Positions 752-46,112 of a stretch of 46,112 bases of DNA are shown here, one piece after another. Source of the DNA: Leptolyngbya sp. SIO4C1. Lineage in GTDB: Bacteria > Cyanobacteriota > Cyanobacteriia > Phormidesmidales > Phormidesmidaceae. The stretch is taken from NCBI GenBank assembly GCA_010671975.1, contig JAAHIA010000007.1:1-46112 (forward strand), in the 5' to 3' direction. The notes below the pieces were generated by a model that was given only the letters and a program-made list of their open reading frames with translations, did not search any database and was not told where the DNA came from. The number at the start of each line of letters is the position of its first letter. Positions within the stretch are counted from its first letter, which is position 1. The position numbers and the translations under genes are program-made.

Positions 752-1108
752 TTAGGAATTGACGATTGCCTTTTGATGCTGCTGCCGCATCCAACCACCT
801 AGCTCCTGACCAATACTATCAATTAACTGACTGACATATTGGTATCGCCGTGCTGACATCAGCTCAAATTCAAATAACAGACGAGTTTGGTGACGTAGCA
901 GATCTAATCGGCCATTCAGGGCCTTCAACCTTGGCAGCTTGTCACTGCTGTATCGAGCAAGGATCAATCCTTCGAGCAAATCGTAAAGACCAGTGATAAC
1001 GCGATCGCCGAGCAGAAACTTATGCTCGCGGGGCAGCTTATTGAGAATAGGCACGTACCACTTCACCAAATCGTAGGTTTTTTGGACGATCGGCAACTCT
1101 CGCTTCAT
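752..1108 (-). CDS. avd: DGR accessory variability determinant (Avd), a four-helix-bundle protein.
   Basis: 118 aa. It shows the typical Avd / 23S-rRNA-IVS-protein pattern (MKRELPIVQKTYDLVKWYVPILNKLPREHKFLLGDRV...IDSIGQELGGWMRQ). It sits between a VR-bearing target gene and the RT start. Confidence 0.8.
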   Translation of the reverse strand: MKRELPIVQKTYDLVKWYVPILNKLPREHKFLLGDRVITGLYDLLEGLILARYSSDKLPRLKALNGRLDLLRHQTRLLFEFELMSARRYQYVSQLIDSIGQELGGWMRQQHQKAIVNS

Positions 1109-1156
1109 CTATCTCGCAGAAAAGAACTTTCGTACTATCGCCGATAGAGCGCCAAA

Positions 1157-1182
1157 GGGCAAGAGGGCAAAAGGGCAAAGGG
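1157..1182 (+). other. Conserved four-G-tract motif directly 3' of the target-1 stop codon.
   Basis: GGGCAAGAGGGCAAAAGGGCAAAGGG on the + strand. Near-identical copies lie at 9011..9036 and 42763..42788. It is absent next to the template repeat. Confidence 0.7.
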
Positions 1183-4100
1183 CTAGTCCCTCGCGAGCCC
1201 GCACACCACCCGAAAACCGGTGTCGTTGAACCTGAAGTCGGGCGCGTCCCCGAAGCGGAACGCCGACCGGCAGAACCCAGGATCGTCGTCCCAGGAACCG
1301 CCCCGCAGTACACGACTTTTTTTGCTCTTGTCAGAGGATATCCAGGCCGAACCATCTTCCGGGGCTCCTTCATAGGTATCATGCCAGTAATCTTCGCACC
1401 ATTCCCACACATTGCCGTGCATATCATATAGACCAAAGGCGTTAGCAGGGAAACGGCCAACCACAGTTGTCTTACCGCGATATTCCCCAATGGGACCCTC
1501 TCCAAAGGCAGACTGAGCACCATAGTTTGCTAAGTCTGCGGCAATGGTTTCACCAAAGTGGAACGGAGTTGTGGTGCCCGCACGGCAGGCATATTCCCAC
1601 TCAGCTTCGGTGGGGAGTCGATAGTCTTTGCCCGTCTTGGCGGAGAGACGTCGACAAAATTCTTGCGCATCCTCCCAACTCACTTGCTCAACAGGAAGAT
1701 GGTTTCCCTCAAAGTTTGATGGGTCAGGATCTAAATTTCGTTTCGACCCCAAATCTGACTGATTGGCCCCGTGCTCAATGGCCGTCCGAAAGTTCCTCTT
1801 TTTGACTGGTATACCTAAAGCATCAGACAGCACAGACCATAACTTAGTACCAGCATCTTTCAAAGAGCTGGCTTGATATGGCACTTCCGATGCCATGCTC
1901 TGGTATGTCTGCTGGTTCCAGGATCCTTCAAGAACAATCCTTTCAATATCTCGGAGTCCTTCCGCCCGAATCGAGCGGACAGCTAAATCAGCCGCTTGAA
2001 GGGCTTCCTCAAAGGTTTGTATGGCTTTCTGGCTGGCTGCTGTTGCGATTGCTCGCCACTGGGCCTGAGTAACGGGATAGCGACTCATATAAAACGGTTG
2101 CAGCGTCACTTCGTGCTGAGGACGCTCATCGTCAGTGCTCCCTGATTCTTCCTCCGGTGCTCCCATCATGAAGGTGCCGCCAGGGATAGCCACCATCTCC
2201 AAGTTCAGATTATCGTCTGTATCCGTATCCTCTCCGAGGGACTCGATATACCCCCAAGCCTCTGCTTGACGGCGACGGATTACCCATTCCTCTGATTCGC
2301 GATCGCGCTCTAAGGTGGCCGTCTCAAACTCAAAAGCGTGTTTGAGCAGAGTAATGATGGTCGGCGATTTAAAATCAAACGGCTGCAGCGGTGGAAAGTT
2401 GAGAAACTCGGCCACTTCGTAATCAACCGTGTGGAGCGGAAAGTTATCTTCGGTAGTCTGCTGGGGCTGTCGTCGTCGCTCCGCAGGCTGCACCACGGTG
2501 GCATATCGTTGGGCCAAGGCGGCATGAGGTCCTCCCAGGCGTTGCAAGACATCAAGGCCCACCGCAGCCAACGGTAAGGCTCCCTCGCCCAGGGCATCGC
2601 CAGTCGCTTCATAGGCTGCTAAAAAAGCCTCAAAACTCTTAAGCGTATTCCCTGCTCTGTCTCTGATCAGTTGAGAGAGCCGATCTAACACTTCCAGAGG
2701 GCGGGAGATCGGCACACTATCGAGTAGCAAGTATCGAACTCGCTGGGACTGATCACCGGGATCATCATCGCCAAAAAACTGGTAGCGGCATTGCCCTTCT
2801 TCCTCCTCGTCACACCGCTGAAGCAACCCGCTAAGGAGCACCTCAGCAACATGCTCTTGCCGCGCCTCTGGCACGAATTCATCCCGCAGCAGGTCAATAA
2901 CCGGCAGGCTCACTGGAGTTGCCGCCATGTATTCTGCTAACTGCTGTGCCATTTCAGAAGCCGCAGACCGAAACAAGGCTACCCGTTGTCGAGCGGTCCG
3001 AGATCGTACCGGAGCAGTTGATTTTGCTTGATATTCCTGCGCAATTTGACGCACCGATTTAAGCTCAAACACCCGACCGGGAGTCAGCGTTCCACCACTA
3101 CCTGCAATGACCCGTGCCCACCGATGCATCGCATGAGGTTCGAGCGTCACAACAGGAACGGTCAGCAGGCGTTGCTCACCATTTGGCGTCTGACCATTGG
3201 CGGGAGTTTCATCAGCTTCATCCCACTGATCCCAGACTTCCAGATTAGGCAGCCCTTCAACTTCCAGGCGAGAACTTGGTAAGCCTGAACCCGTCGTACC
3301 CAATCGGACAATATGACCATTGCTGAGAGCCGTCCGAGTCCATAATCGTTCGGGGAACAGTTGAACAATAGAAACCGGCTGTGCTTCCGCCCAGGCCCAA
3401 AGCGTTTCGTGAATGAGGCCTCGCCACCACAGAGCCGAGGTGCAATCTGTTAGCAGTAGGATCATTCTCCGACTACTGGGATCGAGTAGCTCGCGAGGGC
3501 TATGGGGTCGCTGATACTGACAGGCTTCAGGAGGCTCTCGCCAGCGGGGAAAGAGCATGAGATCTCTGGGGCTAGCTGTTTTTAGGTCAGGCACCGATAA
3601 TCGCCAGGTGCGAATAGTTCTAAAAGCACCTTGATACTCCACTAAGTGTTGCAATTCAGCGATCGCCCGCTCCCACACTACCGTTGTTTTGGAATCTTCT
3701 ACGACCAGTTCCAGATCTAGCCACCGCTCTGGCTGAGCCTGAACTACCGGCACCCAGAGCCGAGTTTCCGCAATTTGGGTAACGGTCGCTTCTTCATCTA
3801 GTTCCTGACGGATACGGGAAGGCACTTTGCGCATCAGGGGTCGGAGCGATCGCGCCAGATCCAGCCGAGTACGCAAGGCTGGCGCAGCCGGTACCGGAAA
3901 CGGGGTTCCCGGAGGTGGCTCCTCTTCCTCTTCTTCTGTCACTGAGGAAGGTTGTGATGGTTCGTCACGGCGATCGTCAATGTAGAGATTAGCGGTTGGC
4001 GTGTCACTGGCAGTAGCGGTACCCTCGTCTACTGTTTTAAGGGGCTTGGGCTCTGCCCCTGGGTGAGGTTCAGAAATCCCATCTGAACGCGCAGATCGAT

Positions 4101-4233
4101 CTAGCTCAATAAATTGAGCTAGCCAAAACATATCGGCCAAGTCAACCGCATCGAAGTCGAGGCCGAGCTGCTGCCTCAGCTTTTGCGCTGATTGTCCGAT
4201 AGTTGGTCTTCGCTGCTGCTCAGATGCTTCCAC
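1183..4233 (-). CDS. vWA-type protein of the MoxR/protease system with a C-terminal FGE (C-type-lectin fold) domain. DGR target 1.
   Basis: 1016 aa. The N-terminus (LRQQLGLDFDAVDLADMFWLAQ) resembles the SAV_2336-type N-terminal domain found with MoxR ATPases. A central vWA-like region follows. The C-terminus has FGE motifs (RPQHEVTLQPFYMSRYPVTQAQW, RLPTEAEWEYACRAG, GLYDMHGNVWEWCED, RVLRGGSW...[11 protein letters not shown]). The gene overlaps the upstream MoxR gene by 58 nt. Confidence 0.8.
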   Translation of the reverse strand: MEASEQQRRPTIGQSAQKLRQQLGLDFDAVDLADMFWLAQFIELDRSARSDGISEPHPGAEPKPLKTVDEGTATASDTPTANLYIDDRRDEPSQPSSVTEEEEEEPPPGTPFPVPAAPALRTRLDLARSLRPLMRKVPSRIRQELDEEATVTQIAETRLWVPVVQAQPERWLDLELVVEDSKTTVVWERAIAELQHLVEYQGAFRTIRTWRLSVPDLKTASPRDLMLFPRWREPPEACQYQRPHSPRELLDPSSRRMILLLTDCTSALWWRGLIHETLWAWAEAQPVSIVQLFPERLWTRTALSNGHIVRLGTTGSGLPSSRLEVEGLPNLEVWDQWDEADETPANGQTPNGEQRLLTVPVVTLEPHAMHRWARVIAGSGGTLTPGRVFELKSVRQIAQEYQAKSTAPVRSRTARQRVALFRSAASEMAQQLAEYMAATPVSLPVIDLLRDEFVPEARQEHVAEVLLSGLLQRCDEEEEGQCRYQFFGDDDPGDQSQRVRYLLLDSVPISRPLEVLDRLSQLIRDRAGNTLKSFEAFLAAYEATGDALGEGALPLAAVGLDVLQRLGGPHAALAQRYATVVQPAERRRQPQQTTEDNFPLHTVDYEVAEFLNFPPLQPFDFKSPTIITLLKHAFEFETATLERDRESEEWVIRRRQAEAWGYIESLGEDTDTDDNLNLEMVAIPGGTFMMGAPEEESGSTDDERPQHEVTLQPFYMSRYPVTQAQWRAIATAASQKAIQTFEEALQAADLAVRSIRAEGLRDIERIVLEGSWNQQTYQSMASEVPYQASSLKDAGTKLWSVLSDALGIPVKKRNFRTAIEHGANQSDLGSKRNLDPDPSNFEGNHLPVEQVSWEDAQEFCRRLSAKTGKDYRLPTEAEWEYACRAGTTTPFHFGETIAADLANYGAQSAFGEGPIGEYRGKTTVVGRFPANAFGLYDMHGNVWEWCEDYWHDTYEGAPEDGSAWISSDKSKKSRVLRGGSWDDDPGFCRSAFRFGDAPDFRFNDTGFRVVCGLARD
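1190..1309 (-). repeat. DGR variable repeat 1 (VR1).
   Basis: 120-bp alignment to the TR at 43832..43951. I count 17 differences by hand, all at + strand T (sense-strand A) of the TR. Confidence 0.9.
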
Positions 4234-5396
4234 AGGCGGTCAATCAAGTCTCCTGGCTCACTGACTTCGGTATTGATATTAGGCTTACGCTCGCGGGTAA
4301 TCAAATAGATCGCATTCAAAAGCTGATCAGTCGCCAGATTACCTTTGCTGAAGTTCTTGTCGCGTTTACCCACAAACCGTTTAACTAAATCATTGATCTG
4401 CTTCTCAGCCCCAGCAATTAAGGCTTCCCCATTCTCTTCCTGACGGAGGTGAGCCTTCACAATCTCGGTCAGCCGCGTTTCGTCTGGCTCCCGCATGGTT
4501 AAGCGAATACAGCGACGCAAAAACGGGGGTGGAAAATCGCGCTCACCGTTACTGGTCAGAATCATGAGCGGAAACTCGGTGCAAGCAATTCGGCCTTTCT
4601 CTATCTTGGTTTTGCCGTTGACCACAACTGGTTTGTCATCGGTTGCATGATCATTTACGTCTGACGCAATTACCACTGCATCATCGTCTGTCACTGATTG
4701 TTTGTTGAACGTAAATTCTGTATCGTCTTTGTAAGCCGTGCGGACTTCGACCTCAGCCCTAACGTCTTCAATCCGCACCAATTCAGGAATCTCAAACACC
4801 CCTTCCTCAAAGACGTAGAGCAAATCATTAGGCAGGTCAATATCGCTCTTATCGATTTCATCCACAATCAGGATGCGGGGTTTTTTAGAGGGCAGAAGAG
4901 CAGTACCCAAAGGCCCTAGACGAATGTATTTGCCCATGTTGTCAAAGCGGTTTTCGCCACTGCGTTCCTTTTCCGTAGAGTCTTGAAGGCGAGCGATCGC
5001 ATCGTAAAGATATAAACCGTCTTTCAGCGTCGTTCTGGTGGTAATGGGCCAGTACAGCACCTCACCCAGATCTGGCTCCCGGGCAATAGCATAGGCCAAC
5101 GACGTTTTGCCGGTGCCCGGTTTCCCCGTCACGAGCAACGGTCGCCGCAGATATAATGCCGCATTGACTAATTCGATCTCATTGGGCTCAGCCTGAAAGG
5201 TAGCCCCTCGCTCTTGCTTACGGCGATCCGCACGCCGCCAGGTCGGGGGAGCAGGAAGCGCCGCCAGGGGAGGCGTATCACCATTATCGGCAGGAGGCGC
5301 ACCAGTGCCCTTAAAGATGGGCTGGAAGATATCCCGCTGCTTCGCTGGCTCGTCACTCATCGTTTCGTCATTCCTCTCAGCATGCCTCTTGATCAA
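4176..5396 (-). CDS. MoxR-like AAA+ ATPase.
   Basis: 406 aa. Walker A is LLVTGKPGTGKTSLAYAIA and Walker B is ILIVDEIDK. It overlaps both neighbouring genes. Confidence 0.8.
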   Translation of the reverse strand: MIKRHAERNDETMSDEPAKQRDIFQPIFKGTGAPPADNGDTPPLAALPAPPTWRRADRRKQERGATFQAEPNEIELVNAALYLRRPLLVTGKPGTGKTSLAYAIAREPDLGEVLYWPITTRTTLKDGLYLYDAIARLQDSTEKERSGENRFDNMGKYIRLGPLGTALLPSKKPRILIVDEIDKSDIDLPNDLLYVFEEGVFEIPELVRIEDVRAEVEVRTAYKDDTEFTFNKQSVTDDDAVVIASDVNDHATDDKPVVVNGKTKIEKGRIACTEFPLMILTSNGERDFPPPFLRRCIRLTMREPDETRLTEIVKAHLRQEENGEALIAGAEKQINDLVKRFVGKRDKNFSKGNLATDQLLNAIYLITRERKPNINTEVSEPGDLIDRLWKHLSSSEDQLSDNQRKS

Positions 5397-7167
5397 ACGG
5401 CTCCCATGTGGGTGGGATGACTTTGAAATCTTCCCATACCAAGCTTAGATGGTAGCCCACATGAGTCTTGTCTTCACAATCGAGGGTTTCAGAACGCTCT
5501 TCAAAAACCCGTTTCGGCAAATCAATCACTGCACAGTCTAAGAGGTGCTCTAGATCCTGGCATTGAGCATCTTGCCGCGACCACAACGCCACCGGTAGGC
5601 CAACTTTTTTGGCTAAAAACTCAAACACATCTTCAACGCGATCGCTGGCAAGATTTTCCAAAATCGCCAGCTCAGCAGAGCGCAACTGCCTGAGTAAACG
5701 ACCTTTGTTGCTGCAATCTGAACGCACCAAAGCATCGCGAGCCGAAGTTTGGTGCTGCTGCTCTAGACTTTCCCACTTTTGCTGCCAACGGGTGTAGTGC
5801 TGCCTGCCAGTGGGAGATTGACTTAAATCTGTTCGCATCACCAATCTATACTGGTTCCCCAGAGTCAGGCCATCCTGAGTTTCACGCGCATCCAGATCGC
5901 AGCCTAAAAGACGTCGGGCAACGAAACAGTGCATCATTGGATTCTCTAAGGCTGATTCGGCCTCAAGCCACCTCTCCAGGAAAAGCGGCAACTCAACAAA
6001 AGGAACCACTTCATCTTTGAGCCGGGGCAGTGGTGGTTCCAGAGGGTCATAGAGATCGCGATCGCCAATCACCCACAGCCAAATTTTGACATTGGCCGTA
6101 TCTTGCTCATCGGGTTTAATCTGTACGATGAGATGCTCAGGGGCATAGGACGAGGGCAGTTGACGATCCTGACGCGCTTGATTAGCTCTGACATACAGCC
6201 GATCGAAATCAAACCGACGAAATCGCACCCAATTCTCTAATTCCTGTCGCAGGATCTTGGGTAAGCCATCCATTACAGCTAGAAACACCGCAAATTGTGT
6301 CAAGCGATCTACATCGCGCTCTGCTTGCTGCCAGCCCCGATTAGACAGCTGTGTGAGGTACTGCAAGCGCTCCAAGATAGGATCACTACTTGAGCGATTG
6401 CCGTCATCGCACAGCCAAAATGCCAGCTCAACCGCATTTCGCACCCGACTCTCAGCCTCGCTCAGCCCTTGCTCAATGAGGTCATATAGGCTGCGGGCAA
6501 ACAGGTCTTGCAGAATCGGACTGAGCTGATCTTCGGGAATAGCATAGGCTTTGCTCCTCTGCTCATCATTTTGCGGCACCCAAGCCGTGGCAATCATCCC
6601 CACTACACAGTTACGGACATGATTCCAAACCGGAGCACCGCTGAATCCCGACTCAATCGTGTCGTCCTGCGGGGCATCTTTTTTGTGAAACTGGAAACGC
6701 CCGCCTACGGCATTGGCTTTGGGCCTATAGGCATCGGAGCGATCGCCGCTCTCTTGAGCGAAGCCATAGACCGAATGCTCTTCATTCTTAATCTCTTCGC
6801 AAGAACAACGCAGGATAGGAATTGGCTTGGAACGATCTGGAGCAGGTGTGAGTAACTTTAAGGCAGCAACATCGCCTCTGTTTAAGTCATAGGGGAGCCA
6901 AGCCACCACCTGAGCTGGAATGTCATATTCATTGGGCAGAAAATCAAGGGTGACAGTTCCTTCAGGCGGTTGTTGATACTCCGCAAAGTCATCTTCATTG
7001 ACGCCCATTGCTTGCAGCACAACATGGGCGCAGGTCAATACATAACCAGGGGCAACCAAAAAACCTGTCCCCACTACGCTCTTCTGGCCCGTTTCCTGAT
7101 TTTGAAAAAAGATGCGGGCGATCGCGTGTTCGTAATCTTCGCGGCTAAGTTCTACTTGTGCTGCCAC
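5377..7167 (-). CDS. Trypsin-like serine protease with a long C-terminal helical domain (VMAP-C-like).
   Basis: 596 aa with a GTG start. The catalytic triad context is VLTCAHVV (His), GDVAALKL (Asp) and GFSGAPVWN (Ser). The roughly 380-aa C-terminal extension is typical of vWA-MoxR-associated proteins as I recall them. Confidence 0.75.
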   Translation of the reverse strand: MAAQVELSREDYEHAIARIFFQNQETGQKSVVGTGFLVAPGYVLTCAHVVLQAMGVNEDDFAEYQQPPEGTVTLDFLPNEYDIPAQVVAWLPYDLNRGDVAALKLLTPAPDRSKPIPILRCSCEEIKNEEHSVYGFAQESGDRSDAYRPKANAVGGRFQFHKKDAPQDDTIESGFSGAPVWNHVRNCVVGMIATAWVPQNDEQRSKAYAIPEDQLSPILQDLFARSLYDLIEQGLSEAESRVRNAVELAFWLCDDGNRSSSDPILERLQYLTQLSNRGWQQAERDVDRLTQFAVFLAVMDGLPKILRQELENWVRFRRFDFDRLYVRANQARQDRQLPSSYAPEHLIVQIKPDEQDTANVKIWLWVIGDRDLYDPLEPPLPRLKDEVVPFVELPLFLERWLEAESALENPMMHCFVARRLLGCDLDARETQDGLTLGNQYRLVMRTDLSQSPTGRQHYTRWQQKWESLEQQHQTSARDALVRSDCSNKGRLLRQLRSAELAILENLASDRVEDVFEFLAKKVGLPVALWSRQDAQCQDLEHLLDCAVIDLPKRVFEERSETLDCEDKTHVGYHLSLVWEDFKVIPPTWEPFDQEAC

Positions 7168-8880: not shown

Positions 8881-9010
8881 CACACCTTTCCCAGTCAACA
8901 CCCGAGATAAAAACCATATCAGCCCCGGTCATCACTACAAGCTTATTCGCTCCATTTCGGCATACATCCAAAGAAACATTAAGTACAAATGAACTATAAC
9001 AGTTACCAAA

Positions 9011-9036
9011 GGGCAAGAGGGCAAAAGGGCAAAGGG
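9011..9036 (+). other. Conserved four-G-tract motif directly 3' of the target-2 stop codon.
   Basis: GGGCAAGAGGGCAAAAGGGCAAAGGG, identical to 1157..1182. Confidence 0.7.
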
Positions 9037-9825
9037 CTAGTCTCTCGCGAGCCCGCACACCACCCGAAAACCGGAGTCGCTGACCCCGAGGCCGGGCGCG
9101 CCCCTGAGGCGGTCCGCCGACCGGCAGAACTCAGGATTGAGGTTCCAGGAACCGCCCCGCAGTACACGACTATTTTCGCTCTCATCAGAGGATATCCAGG
9201 CGGTGCCATCTTCCGGGGCTCCTGCGTAGGTCTTATGCCAGTGGTCTTCGCACCATTCCCATACGTTGCTGTGCATGTCATGAAGGCCCCAACGGTTGGC
9301 CGGATAATGTCCTACTTCCGACGTCTGGTTCATCGTGCCACGATAATTGGCCAGCTCTGCCGTCAGCCTGTCGCCAAAATGATAGGCCGTTTGCGTTCCC
9401 GCACGACAGGCATATTCCCACTGGGCCTCACTGGGTAAGCTATACGCTTTGCCAGTTTTGGCAGCGAGCCGCCGACAGAACTCTGTAGCGTCTTCCCAAC
9501 TCACCTGCTCTACCGGCAAGACATCTCCCTTAAAGCGAGAAGGGGCCGGATCAAGATCTTTGCCGATACGGTCATAGCCTGCAACGATACGCCACTGGAC
9601 CTGAGTCACTGGATAGCGCCCCATCAGAAACGATGGCACCGTGACTCGATGCTGAGGTTGCTCACTACTATGGCTATTAGGCTCATCTTTCAAAGTCCCC
9701 ATCCTAAATTCCCCGGCGGGGATGAGCATCAGCGTCAGAGAAACATCCTCACTCAGAGCTTCGGTGTAAGCCTTGTTCAGACACCGATAGCGATGCAGAG
9801 TCAGAGCCTTGGAAACCGTCGCCAT
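9037..9825 (-). CDS. Stand-alone FGE / C-type-lectin-fold protein. DGR target 2.
   Basis: 262 aa. Motifs include QPQHRVTVPSFLMGRYPVTQVQW, SLPSEAQWEYACRAG, GLHDMHSNVWEWCED and RVLRGGSW...[11 protein letters not shown]. It lies directly upstream of the protease operon on the same strand. Confidence 0.85.
   Translation of the reverse strand: MATVSKALTLHRYRCLNKAYTEALSEDVSLTLMLIPAGEFRMGTLKDEPNSHSSEQPQHRVTVPSFLMGRYPVTQVQWRIVAGYDRIGKDLDPAPSRFKGDVLPVEQVSWEDATEFCRRLAAKTGKAYSLPSEAQWEYACRAGTQTAYHFGDRLTAELANYRGTMNQTSEVGHYPANRWGLHDMHSNVWEWCEDHWHKTYAGAPEDGTAWISSDESENSRVLRGGSWNLNPEFCRSADRLRGAPGLGVSDSGFRVVCGLARD
9044..9163 (-). repeat. DGR variable repeat 2 (VR2).
   Basis: 120-bp alignment to the TR. I count 18 differences by hand, all at TR adenine positions. 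Confidence 0.9.
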
Positions 9826-13730: not shown

Positions 13731-14036
13731 TTGCCCACTCAAGATAAAACAATGAAGCAGCTAGAACTTAACCCCAAGCCCGACATATTAAACGCCTGTG
13801 CCTGGGCACGGCTACCCCATCGCGGCGCTGGTATCGTGCTAGCAGTACCAAAACCGCTACCGCTAGGGCTAGCTCCGTGGCTGCGATCGCAAGGCTGGCA
13901 ACTAGCAGGTTACGCAGAAGATCGAGGACAAGCAGCGGTCTGGCTCATCGGTGGTGTAGAAGCTGACCTACTCGGCTGGCTACCTCGGCCACGCAGCGAA
14001 GGCAGTCGCACAGCGGGGAATCTGCTGCCCTGGTAG
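13731..14036 (+). CDS. Hypothetical protein. Coding status uncertain.
   Basis: A 101-aa ORF (alternative ATG at 13752). Its 3' end runs into the roughly 560-bp repeat R1. No family recognised. Confidence 0.25.
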   Translation: MPTQDKTMKQLELNPKPDILNACAWARLPHRGAGIVLAVPKPLPLGLAPWLRSQGWQLAGYAEDRGQAAVWLIGGVEADLLGWLPRPRSEGSRTAGNLLPW

Positions 14037-14580
14037 GCTTGCCCTAGTCGGACAGCGGACGGGCGAAACCGCCCGAGCACCGCACGCCGCACGGCCACAT
14101 CGAACCACGGTAGGCAGGGTCACGCTGTCAAGGCCGTAGCGCAGCGGAGAGCGAAGCGTGCCTTGATCAGTGGGGCCGCCGTGGTAGCCTTTCTTGGCAG
14201 TGGCACGAAGGGCGCAGGGCGGCCAGCAAAAAAACGGGCAACCCCTTGATCGTGCGGGAAGGGTGGCTTAGTGGCTCATTAAAAAAGCGCCCAACCATAC
14301 AATGCGGAGCGCAGCGGAGCCAACATAAAAAGGGCAACCCTAGCTGATCAAGCCACTAAGCCACCCTGGACGCACAAACAATAAGCGCCCAACCACTCAA
14401 TCTTTCGCCCTTTGTCTTTCAGCATCGGGTAGTTCGCGCTTCGGGATCGAGAGCGTTTATGTGGGGTGCGATCGTGAAGCGGATATGATGCCAAACAAAC
14501 TAAACGGACACTCACATGTTGGCTGTAAGTGTGCTGTCTTGATTGTGTGGAGTGACGCGCCATTAGCATGACTGGAGCGA
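14019..14580 (+). repeat. Copy 1 (R1) of a roughly 560-bp non-coding direct repeat.
   Basis: Aligns with 22287..22845. I estimate identity above 90 percent over the first 450 bp or so, decaying after that. It has internal periodic motifs and a 16-nt inverted repeat (14262..14277 and 14351..14366, approximate). Confidence 0.8.
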
Positions 14581-16683: not shown

Positions 16684-17439
16684 ATGAATATGTCTGCCTT
16701 GAGCCAAAACATTTTTATGAAATTAGGAATCGTAAGCTCCCTAATTTTAAGTAGCAGCAATGCAGTAGCCGCAAATCAAATCCAAGTGTGGACACCTAAT
16801 TTTGGTTACGAAGCTGGAAGTTGGCGCGTCAGCCAGCACATTCGTACCTTAGCCGATGTGAACGGTGACGGGAAAGACGATATCGTTGGTTTCGGCAATT
16901 CTGGGACGTTTGTCTCCTTATCAACGGGGTCTGGGTTTACTTCTCCTCAGAAGTGGGTCAATGACTTTGGTCGTAATGAGGACGCTGGTTCTTGGAATTT
17001 AGACCAGCACATTCGTACCTTAGCCGATGTGAACGGTGACGGGAAAGACGATATCGTTGGTTTCGGCAATTCTGGGACGTTTGTCTCCTTATCAACGGGG
17101 TCTAGGTTTACTTCTCCTCAGAAGTGGGTCAATAACTTTGGTCGTAATGAGGACGCTGGTTCTTGGAATTTAGACCAGCACATTCGTACCTTAGCTGATG
17201 TGAACGGTGATGGGAAAGACGACATCGTTGGTTTCGGTAATGCCGGGACGTTTATCTCCCTATCGACAGGCACTGAGTTTGTTTCACCTCAGATGTGGAT
17301 CAATAACTTTGGTCGCAATGAGGACGCTGGTTCTTGGAATTTAGACCGGCACATTCGTACCTTAGCCGATGTGAACGGTGATGGGAAAGACGACATCGTT
17401 GGTTTCGGCAATGCCGGAGTTTTTGTTACCACCAGATAA
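16684..17439 (+). CDS. Secreted FG-GAP/VCBS-like repeat protein.
   Basis: A signal-peptide-like N-terminus is followed by four 57-aa repeats containing ADVNGDGKDDIVGFGN. Confidence 0.7.
   Translation: MNMSALSQNIFMKLGIVSSLILSSSNAVAANQIQVWTPNFGYEAGSWRVSQHIRTLADVNGDGKDDIVGFGNSGTFVSLSTGSGFTSPQKWVNDFGRNEDAGSWNLDQHIRTLADVNGDGKDDIVGFGNSGTFVSLSTGSRFTSPQKWVNNFGRNEDAGSWNLDQHIRTLADVNGDGKDDIVGFGNAGTFISLSTGTEFVSPQMWINNFGRNEDAGSWNLDRHIRTLADVNGDGKDDIVGFGNAGVFVTTR
16834..17439 (+). repeat. Tandem 171-bp coding repeats (about 3.5 units).
   Basis: Units start at 16834, 17005, 17176 and 17347 and are nearly identical at the nucleotide level. Confidence 0.85.
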
Positions 17440-22255: not shown

Positions 22256-22286
22256 GCCGCAACAACATCCTTACCTCACAGCCAGA

Positions 22287-22845
22287 AATCTGCTGCCCTG
22301 GTAGGCTTGCCCTAGTCAGACAGCGGAAGGGCGAAACCGCCCGAGCACCGCACGCCGCACGGCCACATCGAACCACGGTAGGCAGGGTCACGCTGTCAAG
22401 GCCGCAGCGTAGCGGAAAGCGAAGCGTGCCTTGATCAGTGGGGCCGCCGTGGTAGCCTTTCTCGGCAGTGGCACGAAGGGCGCAGGGCGGCCAACAAAAA
22501 ACGGGCAACCCCTTGATCGTGCGGGAAGGATGGTTTAGTGGCTCACTAAAAAGCGCCCAACCACACAATGCGGAGCGCAGCGGAGCCAATGTAAAAGGGC
22601 AACCTCAGCTGATCAAGCCACTATGCCAGCCTGGACGCACAAACTAACAAACGCCCAACCACTCAATCTTTCACCCTTTGTCTTTCAGCATCGGGTAGTT
22701 CGCGCTTCGGGGGCGAGGGTGTTTCTGTGGAGTGCGATTGCTGAGCGTATGCAAAGCCAAATAAACAGGCAAAACTAGACCGTCTGTAAGTGTGCGACAC
22801 TAGCTCGTTTGTATGGAGTGACATAACACCAGCACGGCTGGAGCC
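22287..22845 (+). repeat. Copy 2 (R2) of the roughly 560-bp non-coding direct repeat.
   Basis: Aligns with 14019..14580. Confidence 0.8.
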
Positions 22846-42616: not shown

Positions 42617-42663
42617 AACGCTGCTTTATGCATACCCTTAAAGGGTATGCATAAAGCAGCGTT
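42617..42663. repeat. 47-bp near-perfect palindrome.
   Basis: AACGCTGCTTTATGCATACCCTT-A-AAGGGTATGCATAAAGCAGCGTT has 23-nt arms. It lies about 100 nt downstream of the target-3 stop. Confidence 0.8.
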
Positions 42664-42762
42664 CGTAGGCTATTGCGACAGCTATCGATTTGTTTGAACG
42701 ACACCAGTCAAATTTCACTACCGCCAATATAGTTTACTTGTACTATCAAACGATCCGCTAAA

Positions 42763-42788
42763 GGGATAGAGGGCAAAAGGGCAAAGGG
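42763..42788 (+). other. Conserved four-G-tract motif directly 3' of the target-3 stop codon.
   Basis: GGGATAGAGGGCAAAAGGGCAAAGGG. Confidence 0.7.
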
Positions 42789-43664
<876 letters not shown>

Positions 43665-43831
43665 ACATCAGCAGATAGGGGGGTGGGTTGAGCAATCGTT
43701 CAGCTGAGCTTACCAGGCTACTCAACCCTGTTTTCTATTTGGATGCTGTCACCAGCATCACCGGAGCTAAGCTGGACTCCCCTTCGCACGCCCGACAGAT
43801 TCCCATCTGCCAGCTCTGGCCCAGAAGAGTA

Positions 43832-43951
43832 CTCGCGAGCCCGCACACCACCCGAAAACCGGTGTTGTTGTTCCTGTTGTCGGGCGCGTTCCTGTTGCGG
43901 TTCGCCGACCGGCAGTTCTCAGGATTGTTGTTCCAGGAACCGCCCCGCAGT
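43832..43951 (-). repeat. DGR template repeat (TR).
   Basis: It lies 20 nt downstream of the RT stop. The sense strand encodes an Asn(AAC)-rich version of the VR peptide ([37 protein letters not shown]). There are 29 sense-strand adenines by my count. Confidence 0.9.
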
Positions 43952-43970: not shown

Positions 43971-45035
43971 TCACTGTCTCGAAAACACGAGATCAGCAAA
44001 TAGCTTTTGGCGCAATCGCCAGGTGTCAGCATGGTCAAGATGGGCCAGCCAGCTTTGCATTGACCGATCCAACTCTTGAAACCCTATTTTACCGCTAGCA
44101 TAGTCAGCCTGCAGCTGTTTGAGTCGGCGTCTGGCTCGACGCAGGTTTTCGCTACGCACGCGGATACACACATCCTTTGAGCAGCCTTCACCTTTTGGCA
44201 GTATCCGAAATCCCAAAAAGTTAGCACCATGACGAGTCTCAAAGAGTTGGCTTTTGACAGGGTGGACCTTGAGCCGTAGCCCGACCAGGTAATCTTCCAG
44301 GGCAGTGCGGGCCTTAGCCAGAAATCCTTGATCGTCACTAAATAAGGCGAAGTCATCCACATATCGAACGTACTTTTTTACCTGGAGCTGCTCTTTCACA
44401 AAGTGATCGAAGCCGTTGAGGTAAACATTAGCAAAGAACTGACTGGTAAGATTGCCAATCGGCAACCCCCGTCGCCGTTCTAACATCGTCAGCAAATCGT
44501 CTCCTGGAAATAGCTCATGGACTGGAATCTGCTCATTGCTGTGGTCAATGATGCAGTCAATCAGCCAAAGCGTATCCGGGCATTTAATCTTGCGCCGCAC
44601 GATCGCTTTGAGAATGGTCAGGTCAATGCTAGGAAATATTTTTGGATATCGCACTGCAGCACATAGGGCGTGGTGCGCATAAATTGAATGAGCCGCTGTA
44701 GCGCCCGGTGGGTGCCATAACCAATACGATTGGCATAGGAGTCATCAATAAAGGTGCGCTCGAAAATGGGCTGAATGATATTGCAAAGGGCATGGTGGAC
44801 GACACGATCGCGATAGGGAGCCGCAGAAATCATCCGTAGTTTAGGATCGTAGATTTCAAAGGTGGTATAGCCTCCAGGCTTATACGTTTTATGAGTAAGC
44901 TCGGCCTGAAGAGCTAACAGCGCTGACTCCAGACTGTAGTTGAATCGCAAGACACTTGCCTGCATCCGTTTGCCCCGCTGGGCATTGCGAGCCGCCAGGA
45001 GCAGGTTCTCAAAGTGAATGACCTGAGGCCAAAGG
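43971..45035 (-). pseudogene. DGR reverse transcriptase body, with its 5' end removed by the IS and a 1-nt frameshift.
   Basis: [21 protein letters not shown]..., [41 protein letters not shown] (DGR-type motif) and [11 protein letters not shown]. The frame breaks at about 44632..44633 (QKYF then PSID needs one more C). Confidence 0.85.
45027..45035. repeat. 9-bp target-site duplication GGCCAAAGG (partner copy 721..729).
   Basis: See 721..729. Confidence 0.8.
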
Positions 45036-45052
45036 CTGATTGACTGACAAAA
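45036..45052. repeat. Terminal inverted repeat of the junction-spanning IS (CTGATTGACTGACAAAA).
   Basis: Reverse complement of 704..720. Confidence 0.85.
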
Positions 45053-45053
45053 G

Positions 45054-46112
45054 TTATTCAGGCGCGTATGAGTACGTTAGTACTCTGAACTCCAGACGAT
45101 AGGCTCGTTTCTCGTGTTGTTTGCGCGAGGCCATCGCCGGGTCAGGGTCACGATTGGTTGTGAAGCTAACCTTGCGGACAATGCGCCAGCCTTGCACAGC
45201 AGCAGCCTTGAGCCAGTCCCAGCCAATGCGAAAGTAGCTGCTACCGCGAAACCAGTGGGCATCGACCCAGCGACGCTGATGCTCAGCGACAACCTGAGTG
45301 CCCTGAGCGGTGACAAACAGGGTTGCCAGCGCCAGAATGAACCAGAGTCTAGACAGCGCACAGACCGAACGAATCTGCGACTTTTGCAGATTCCACCCGC
45401 TGGATTGGTCGTCTCGGAAATTCTGCTCAATGTCGAACCTCAAAGCGTACTCACAGAAGGTCTGCAGCGTGGTCGGCTGATCGCTGACAATCGCCCAGAA
45501 CTCGCCGTTGAGGTTGTTGCGCCCGAAGGCGATGTGGACCGGGCCGTAGCATTGCCCTTTGTGGATGCGAACGTTGTGAAAGCACAGCGCTTCCCCACGC
45601 TTGAAGTGAATGTCCTTGAGCTGTGACCATCCCTTGCCAGCACGCCATATCCAGGTGTTCTTCTTCAACCGGATACGATAGTGCCAGCCCCACTGCTGGC
45701 TGAGGGCTCGCATCAAGTCTGTGTGCACAAAGCCTCGGTCAGCCAAGAGCACTACCTTGAGACCCACTGGCAAGCACTCGGCGGCTTGGTGCAAGAGCGC
45801 TTCGTACTCAGCAAAAGCCACCGCCGCGCTGCTATGGTGCAGCACCCGCCAAGCCACTGGCAAGGCACGACCGCGATGGACCACCGCCACCCGTATCAGG
45901 CAGTACTCGTCCCAGAATAGTGAAGTATCCAAGCTCAAGAAGAGGCACTCGTCTTGCCATTCGCTGATGGCAGCCTGTATCAGCGGCTTGTATAGCTTGT
46001 GGACATTGATGCGAGCATTGTTGAGCCAGCGCTGTACCCGCCTTTGCTTGCTTTGAGCGTAGCGACCTCGACTGGGTAGATAGGGCACCCAGCGAGTGAG
46101 GTTCACTTCTCC
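45054..46112 (-). CDS. IS4-superfamily DDE transposase, catalytic part. The frame stays open to the window end.
   Basis: [30 protein letters not shown] and [16 protein letters not shown] give D, D and E/K landmarks of IS4-like (DDE_Tnp_1) enzymes. [16 protein letters not shown] resembles cyanobacterial IS4-family N-terminal regions. Confidence 0.75.

Follow-up and report, generated by a model that had tools for sequence, protein, structure and literature searches.

How does a diversity-generating retroelement (DGR) tell the variable repeats (VRs) that it rewrites from the template repeat (TR) that it copies, and how does it serve many remote targets? Both points are still open, even for the BPP-1 element (PMC12875486). 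They are raised by a DGR in Leptolyngbya sp. SIO4C1, on contig JAAHIA010000007.1 of assembly GCA_010671975.1, whose 46,112 nt (hereafter the window) carry three target genes and one TR. Each target stop codon is followed by a short G-rich motif that the TR lacks. A first-pass annotation of the sequence had proposed that this motif is the target-recognition signal and that it acts as a G-quadruplex or i-motif. We examined what the element is, where it occurs in related loci, and how it compares with known recipient signals.

In BPP-1, the recipient is set by an initiation of mutagenic homing (IMH) element located where the VR ends, along with a GC hairpin 4-34 bp away (PMC3240598). The IMH has two parts, one GC-rich (14 bp) and one VR-specific (21 bp), and its counterpart at the TR is termed IMH*. 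In the hairpin described by Guo et al. (2011), which raises homing, a GC stem of 7-10 bp is capped by a GRNA loop, and the distance to the VR is 4-34 bp (PMC3240598). In a survey, hairpins were found past just 34% of the DGR VRs, and for some IMHs to be distinct from IMH* they must 'extend downstream' (PMC5758913). The current model holds that cDNA anneals to the single-stranded sense strand of the target, with the stem-loop lengthening the open state (PMC12875486), and a survey of cyanobacterial DGRs raises, as speculation only, the activation of remote targets by cis features close to 3' termini (PMC7517822). In the literature that we searched, we came across neither a description of such a repeat nor a paper connecting DGRs to G-quadruplexes or to pyrimidine repeats.

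A G-tract motif follows each variable repeat

The three target genes lie on the minus strand: T1 (1183..4233; 1016 aa), T2 (9037..9825; 262 aa) and T3 (42789..43664; 291 aa). Each encodes a C-terminal FGE-sulfatase/C-type lectin (CLec) domain, with PF03781 found in all three, and their last 11 residues are the same. Stop codons included, VR1 occupies 1183..1309, VR2 9037..9163 and VR3 42789..42915 (all minus strand), and each was aligned to the TR at 43832..43951 (minus strand), which has 29 adenines in its sense strand. For VR1 the TR homology covers 1190-1309, and the remaining 1183-1189 are VR-specific, reading GGGACTAG in the sense orientation with the stop codon included. Within the homology every VR-TR mismatch falls at a TR adenine (17/17 in VR1, 18/18 in VR2 and 13/13 in VR3); because the mismatches are confined to these positions, all three VRs were genuine targets.

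On the plus strand, the pattern GGGNNNNNGGGNNNNNGGGNNNNGGG (GGG-N5-GGG-N5-GGG-N4-GGG) has exact matches at 1157-1182, 9011-9036 and 42763-42788, each beginning with the first base past the stop codon of a target gene, just where the first-pass annotation had placed them. Dinucleotide-preserving shuffles gave an expectation of 0.00 matches, and a regular expression for four runs of three or more G with loops of 1-7 nt, run on both strands of the 46 kb, returned these three sites alone. Copies 1 and 2 are identical and copy 3 departs from them in one loop, again as annotated; the change affects two adjacent bases (CA to AT).

Identity between VR and TR stops at GGGCTCGCGAG. From there the VRs continue with G(G/A)GACTAG and the motif, and the TR goes on as TACTCTTCTGG, with no motif. 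Two details of the earlier description needed amendment. The continuation that it gave for the VRs, GGGACTAG, is not shared by VR2, whose VR-specific part is GAGACTAG; and although the four-tract pattern was correctly described, the block conserved among the paralogues is 31 nt, extending to 1152, 9006 and 42758 (repeat family D1), so that paralogue similarity ends abruptly 5 nt past the motif. The element is non-coding and, as the annotation had argued, sits where a recipient signal is expected, namely at the IMH and its flank. This position, directly past the stop codon, is established by the alignments themselves.

The motif is a CCCTTT repeat array on the sense strand

The G-rich motif is the antisense view of a CCCTTT pyrimidine repeat array. 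In the window, the sense strand reads CCCTTTG CCCTTTTG CCCTCTTG CCCTTTGG, four pyrimidine units with one purine each. Array 1 (1152..1182) stands directly past the T1 stop codon; array 2 (9006..9036), the same as array 1, directly past that of T2; and array 3 (42758..42788), with ATCCCTTTAG as its fourth unit, directly past that of T3, all on the minus strand.

More generally, the array consists of about four CCCTTT(T)N units of 7-8 nt with an 8-nt period, relatives having 4 to 6 or more units, and the family consensus is TAG CCCTTTA CCCTTTTG CCCTTTTG CCCTTTG. The periodicity is seen directly in the identity autocorrelation, which reaches 0.53 at lag 8 and 0.48 at lags 15-16 and falls to 0.22 at lags 4 and 11. 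The first unit is almost invariant (C96 C83 C100 T100 T86 T82). The TAG before the array is kept even where the real stop sits one codon earlier (TAA TAG, TGA TAG, TAG TAG), and it is thus part of the element and more than a stop codon. In the 50 nt past the stop, CCCTTT is 100-fold enriched, and 45% of the bases are T, 32% C, 12% A and 11% G. Inverted symmetry is lacking in the array, as is, when read from the sequence, mirror symmetry, and we rejected H-DNA as a candidate structure.

The array occurs at variable repeat ends across related loci

We compared the window with 200 related loci. In 80 loci encoding T3 relatives, drawn from numerous genera of cyanobacteria, we read the DNA past each stop codon. 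Most genes ending in ...GFRVVC...* run directly into an array of the same kind, for example, Leptolyngbya-like lineages have TAG CCCTTTGCCCTTTTGCCCTTT and Nostocales have TAG CCCTTTATACTTTAGTCCTTTTGCCCTTTACACTT. The nearest relative, represented by the loci L170 and L180, was recovered by a metagenome scan with the conserved VR end.

Among the observations that the first-pass annotation had set out in advance as speaking against its proposal was that the motif is a general repeat scattered through the genome. Cyanobacterial genomes do contain short dispersed repeats of this sort, such as the short tandemly repeated repetitive (STRR) heptamers and the highly iterated palindrome HIP1, which are scattered genome-wide. 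The array resembles these in consisting of short tandem units of 7-8 nt in the non-coding DNA of filamentous cyanobacteria, but it differs in being found at VR ends alone. A profile of the array gave 58 matches (E <= 0.01) in 1.34 Mb (the window and the loci, both strands), and 58/58 lie directly past a VR-type gene end; two of these were missed by a regular expression and confirmed by eye. The window holds no further copy, and within the window and the DGR loci scanned the scattered-repeat alternative fails.

The array also separates recipients from donors. When each locus was compared with itself, 0/22 TRs carried an array and all ran into a conserved spacer. Across 23 TR-bearing loci, on the other hand, 48/49 VR copies had the array, with a mean of 15.2 mismatches at adenines and 2.2 elsewhere. 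The single copy without it is the most decayed of the 49, with 10 non-adenine mismatches. The contrast between VR and TR that had been noted in the window is therefore observed throughout the sampled lineage. In an RT (reverse transcriptase) homologue search aimed at other phyla, the best 120 hits with a source name were all cyanobacterial. We did not find the array in viral contigs.

Could such a pattern arise with no function, through shared ancestry or through gene conversion between target paralogues that reaches slightly past the VR? Arrays 1 and 2 are identical over 31 nt, and paralogues have been swapped at some loci, both of which would fit this reading. The cDNA, however, is unable to homogenise the array because the TR lacks it. 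The array is kept from Nostocales to Leptolyngbya-like lineages amid adjacent non-coding DNA that can no longer be aligned, and both its position-specific conservation and its 8-nt period are unexpected for neutral DNA. We regard a functionless array as very improbable.

Two further observations concern the fate of these gene ends. At one chromosomal locus represented by L095, L102, L105, L141 and L196, the downstream 300 nt differ by 0.3-3% and the gene body by 11-24% with indels, a pattern which suggests that target paralogues may be exchanged by recombination through the shared VR. In three freshwater metagenome contigs (L135, L139 and L158), a small hairpin-bearing insert lies within the array with duplicated ACCCTTTTTCT at its flanks, and looks like a miniature mobile element.

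G-quadruplex potential is not conserved

We next considered the fold itself. If the G-rich strand formed a G-quadruplex (G4), or the C-rich sense strand an i-motif, the structure might replace the BPP-1 cruciform and keep the duplex open for cDNA. The window copies have several properties in keeping with this. All three match the usual motif definition (four runs of at least three G, loops of 1-7 nt) and are the only canonical matches in the 46 kb; their G4Hunter scores, a prediction that the annotation had called for, are 1.31-1.35, which is borderline, and 37 regions of the window score at least 1.2. None of the three flanks has a hairpin, most flanks of the closest GC-rich (Nodosilinea-like) clade retain four C3 runs, and the model in which cDNA anneals to an opened target would accommodate a G4 on the displaced strand. 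When ViennaRNA was run with G-quadruplex energies, however, no G4 was chosen in the sequence context.

The survey of related flanks upheld the array at VR ends but not the four-tract motif. A canonical motif of four C3 runs (loops <=7 nt) occurs in 9/96 related flanks, or in 19/96 with loops up to 12 nt, and in 0/33 flanks from loci below 42% GC, despite the adenine-only mismatches of their VRs. In Nostocales, VRs with a single C3 run have nearly all mismatches at adenines (13/13 in L058 and 16/17 in L062). Tracts are also broken in diversified VRs of closer relatives: the three VRs of L170/L180 have 14/14, 19/19 and 20/20 mismatches at TR adenines, yet in VR b of L170 (19/19) the third CCC has become CTC, and in L104 the third CCC is CAC while 17/17 mismatches are at TR adenines.

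The pattern of substitution points the same way. In the ten closest flanks, the T positions that would form the loops are invariant and changes are confined to the unit junctions; family-wide, the 'loop' positions are >=93% pyrimidine, and in units 2-4 the first two C positions hold C in just 40-73% of cases. A fold would constrain the tracts and free the loops, and as the reverse is observed, the comparative data speak against the G-quadruplex as the property that matters; the constraint on the 'loops', which is no weaker than that on the tracts, goes beyond the needs of a fold alone. Strict conservation, as claimed in the annotation, thus holds inside the window, but what is conserved is the CCCTTT unit and not the fold. 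We also asked whether a G4 stands in for the GC hairpin, and rejected this: four-tract motifs are no commoner in hairpin-less flanks, with no negative association between G4 potential and hairpin presence. G4 potential is, as a matter of direct comparison, not conserved. The best reading of these alignments is that it would be a by-product of GC content, although a supporting structural function in the closest GC-rich clade is conceivable, and we consider it improbable that a G4 or i-motif is the property on which the element depends.

Hairpins, the spacer RNA and known recipient signals

Within 150 nt of the three window stop codons we found no hairpin or cruciform, including any of the kind described by Guo et al. 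(2011), and fold z-scores were +0.4 to +0.9. Relatives differ in this respect. A GC hairpin is present in 32/87 (37%) of array-bearing flanks, compared with 4.4% of random windows, and its spacing is fixed, with a median of 55 nt past the stop, just beyond the array. The window arrays end in TTTGG, exactly at the start of the relatives' hairpin arm (TTTGGCGCGNAGCGCC). Since more flanks have the array than the hairpin, the array is the more constant flank feature in this lineage.

Set beside the BPP-1 IMH, the array lies at the same kind of place: at the VR 3' end, just past the adenine mutagenesis zone and past a GC-rich stretch common to VR and TR (GGTGTGCGGGCTCGCGAG), where what comes next is not the same in VR and TR and might identify the recipient. 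It departs from that element in that its VR-specific part is a periodic CCCTTT array of >=30 nt, rather than a slightly substituted near-copy of the TR flank, and lies wholly outside the coding sequence; its function, moreover, is a putative one. Like the Guo et al. (2011) hairpin, the array is a VR-only feature absent from the TR, and in 37% of array-bearing flanks the two occur together. Unlike it, the array stands in window flanks that have no hairpin and itself lacks inverted symmetry, and what is conserved in it is the sequence, while in the BPP-1 stem the structure is kept and the sequence is free. As for canonical G-quadruplex motifs, the window copies fit these on the antisense strand, but with tracts that are not conserved, loops that are, and borderline scores.

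At the TR, the place of the array is taken by a conserved structured spacer RNA, TACTCTTCTGGGCCAGAGCTGGCAGATGGGAATCTGTCGGGCGTGCGAAGGGGAGTCCAG..., at 43700..43831 (minus strand; lower boundary approximate; z = -2.4). In relatives it reads ...ACTCTTC-TG-GCCAGAACTGGCAGATGGGAATCTGTCGGGCGTGC-GAAGAGTCCAG... and is conserved with covarying stems in 21-22 loci. The RNA has an invariant AUGGGAAU loop, and its GAAGAGUCCAG segment pairs with the TR flank ACUCUUC. An Rfam scan of the window gave no match, and the spacer RNA fits no Rfam family. We also tried docking of its purine segment (GAAGGGGAGU) on the array. Matches of 7 bp can be drawn, but a comparison of own with other pairs over 21 loci gave p = 0.55, and the candidate was rejected.

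Expression-level alternatives and a LexA box

A different possibility is that the array acts on expression, either as an element of the 3' untranslated region (UTR), through stability, 3'-end formation or protein binding, or as an upstream element of the promoter of avd, RT and TR that was copied along with the C-terminal module as remote targets arose. The array does belong to the 3' UTR, has little G and much U and C, and in relatives often precedes a GC hairpin with a T run. Where a target is internal to the DGR, a LexA-like box and the avd start come within about 50 nt past the array, and a remnant of the avd-upstream box is kept at VR3. Several findings are difficult to reconcile with this account. 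The array is present at every VR regardless of what lies downstream, be it another target gene, avd or unrelated DNA, and follows no other gene type in 1.34 Mb. Promoter and terminator consensus scans of the three window flanks found none, nor is an intrinsic terminator (a GC hairpin with a T run) present in these flanks, and the hairpin accompanies just 37% of array-bearing flanks. Finally, exact units are kept across distant cyanobacterial orders and similarity is then lost abruptly, which a DGR-linked constraint fits better. An expression-level role is therefore unlikely in our estimation, although it deserves more weight than the fold.

The box itself merits description. Between array 1 and avd, at 1123..1136 (minus strand), is an exact match to the published cyanobacterial LexA pattern RGTACNNNDGTWCB, 21 nt past the array and 15 nt ahead of the avd start codon, which is itself 48 nt past the array. 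The pattern has 2 hits in the window against 0.21 expected. A LexA box also lies just upstream of avd in L001, L166 and L189 (among only 20 hits of the pattern in 2.1 Mb), and near-matches occur in other relatives. The sequence hints that the avd-RT-TR operon may be under LexA control.

The reverse transcriptase, avd and other features of the window

The remaining DGR components are avd, encoding a bAvd-like accessory protein (752..1108, minus strand; bAvd match E = 1.7e-19), and an RT pseudogene (43971..45038, minus strand) in which RVT_1 is split over two open reading frames (ORFs). Together with the adenine-type TR/VR pairs and the CLec-fold targets with C-terminal VRs, a DGR-type RT near the TR and an Avd identify the system as a DGR. 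Relative to the RT of L170, a 1-nt deletion in a T run causes the frameshift that yields the two ORFs. The window RT also lacks its first codons and lies beside a DDE transposase gene of an insertion sequence (IS) at 45054-46106 (minus strand). In the nearest relative, the spacer is almost identical to that of the window and the RT is intact, with 361 aa (L170 7951-9036) and 95% identity to the window RT. As all three VRs of the window still have adenine-only mismatches, the inactivation looks recent.

The genes of L170 run in the order T1-like gene, avd, RT, TR, T3-like gene; the 46,112-bp contig of the window has avd at one end and RT, with the IS adjoining it, at the other. An IS inserted between the two genes is probably where this contig breaks, or where it closes into a circle. 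Among public sequencing runs for the organism, the best contained 7% of the words.

Upstream of T1, at 4176-7167 (minus strand), are a gene for an AAA (MoxR-like) ATPase and one for a trypsin-like protease with VMAP domains, an order also found in L170. This neighbourhood corresponds to the 'putative antigen sensor' conflict system described for DGR targets in multicellular bacteria (PMC10907252). Some 130 nt downstream of the T3 stop, at 42620-42661, is a 42-nt perfect palindrome (GCTGCTTTATGCATACCCTT/AAGGGTATGCATAAAGCAGC) with no T run after it. Elsewhere, two segments of about 500 nt (14009-14500 and 22277-22766; families D6, D8, D9, D11 and D12) are 84-95% alike, with an inverted repeat inside them and with A-rich/GGGCAACCC-like boxes. 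Three tandem 171-nt units with 85-93% identity occupy 16810-17426, within the ORF 16684..17439.

Discussion

With moderate confidence, we lean towards the array being a lineage-specific recipient-site signal and an extended IMH; the DGR particle or a host factor would read it by its sequence or by its strand composition. That the array acts in homing, and how it does so, we infer from comparative sequence data. The array would take the place of the VR-specific IMH segment of the BPP-1 element: VR equals TR up to GGGCTCGCGAG, and beyond it the VR has the array and the TR the structured spacer RNA, a difference by which the homing machinery would most probably recognise the recipient copy. Reading might be done by the Avd-RT-RNA particle, or by a host factor, on single-stranded or opened DNA, and in many relatives the array would probably act jointly with the GC hairpin about 55 nt downstream.

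Several points weigh against assigning the array to homing. It is transcribed as part of the target 3' UTR, and in DGR-internal targets it stands just upstream of avd, so that a role at the level of expression is conceivable. About 13/99 VR-type ends, in a freshwater clade, have no array, and one array-less freshwater group has a perfect VR scaffold; this locus also shows paralogue swapping, which could explain array-less ends with a perfect scaffold. The survey sampled the flanks of DGR loci and not whole genomes. Lastly, we found no lineage-specific base-pairing between spacer and array (p = 0.55), which gives no support to the simple version of a recipient signal in which RNA docks on the array.

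A broader proposal, which we put forward only tentatively and hold to be possible rather than probable, is that the array is the recipient-site determinant of the whole cyanobacterial DGR lineage. It would then be a periodic signal read as sequence, with, for example, one unit for each subunit of the pentameric Avd of the RT-Avd-RNA particle, and would license any gene ending in CLec, near or remote; GC-richer lineages might fold it as a G4 as well. If true, this would explain how many dispersed targets are controlled without a cruciform.

The known hairpin is found in only about a third of DGRs (PMC5758913). To anyone planning a G4 experiment on this locus, the comparative data suggest that folding is probably not what matters. 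A short, sharply bounded, VR-only sequence that extends across a very large chromosomal DGR lineage offers a concrete candidate signal that can be mutated, and the array may serve as a simple marker for remote targets in cyanobacterial genomes.

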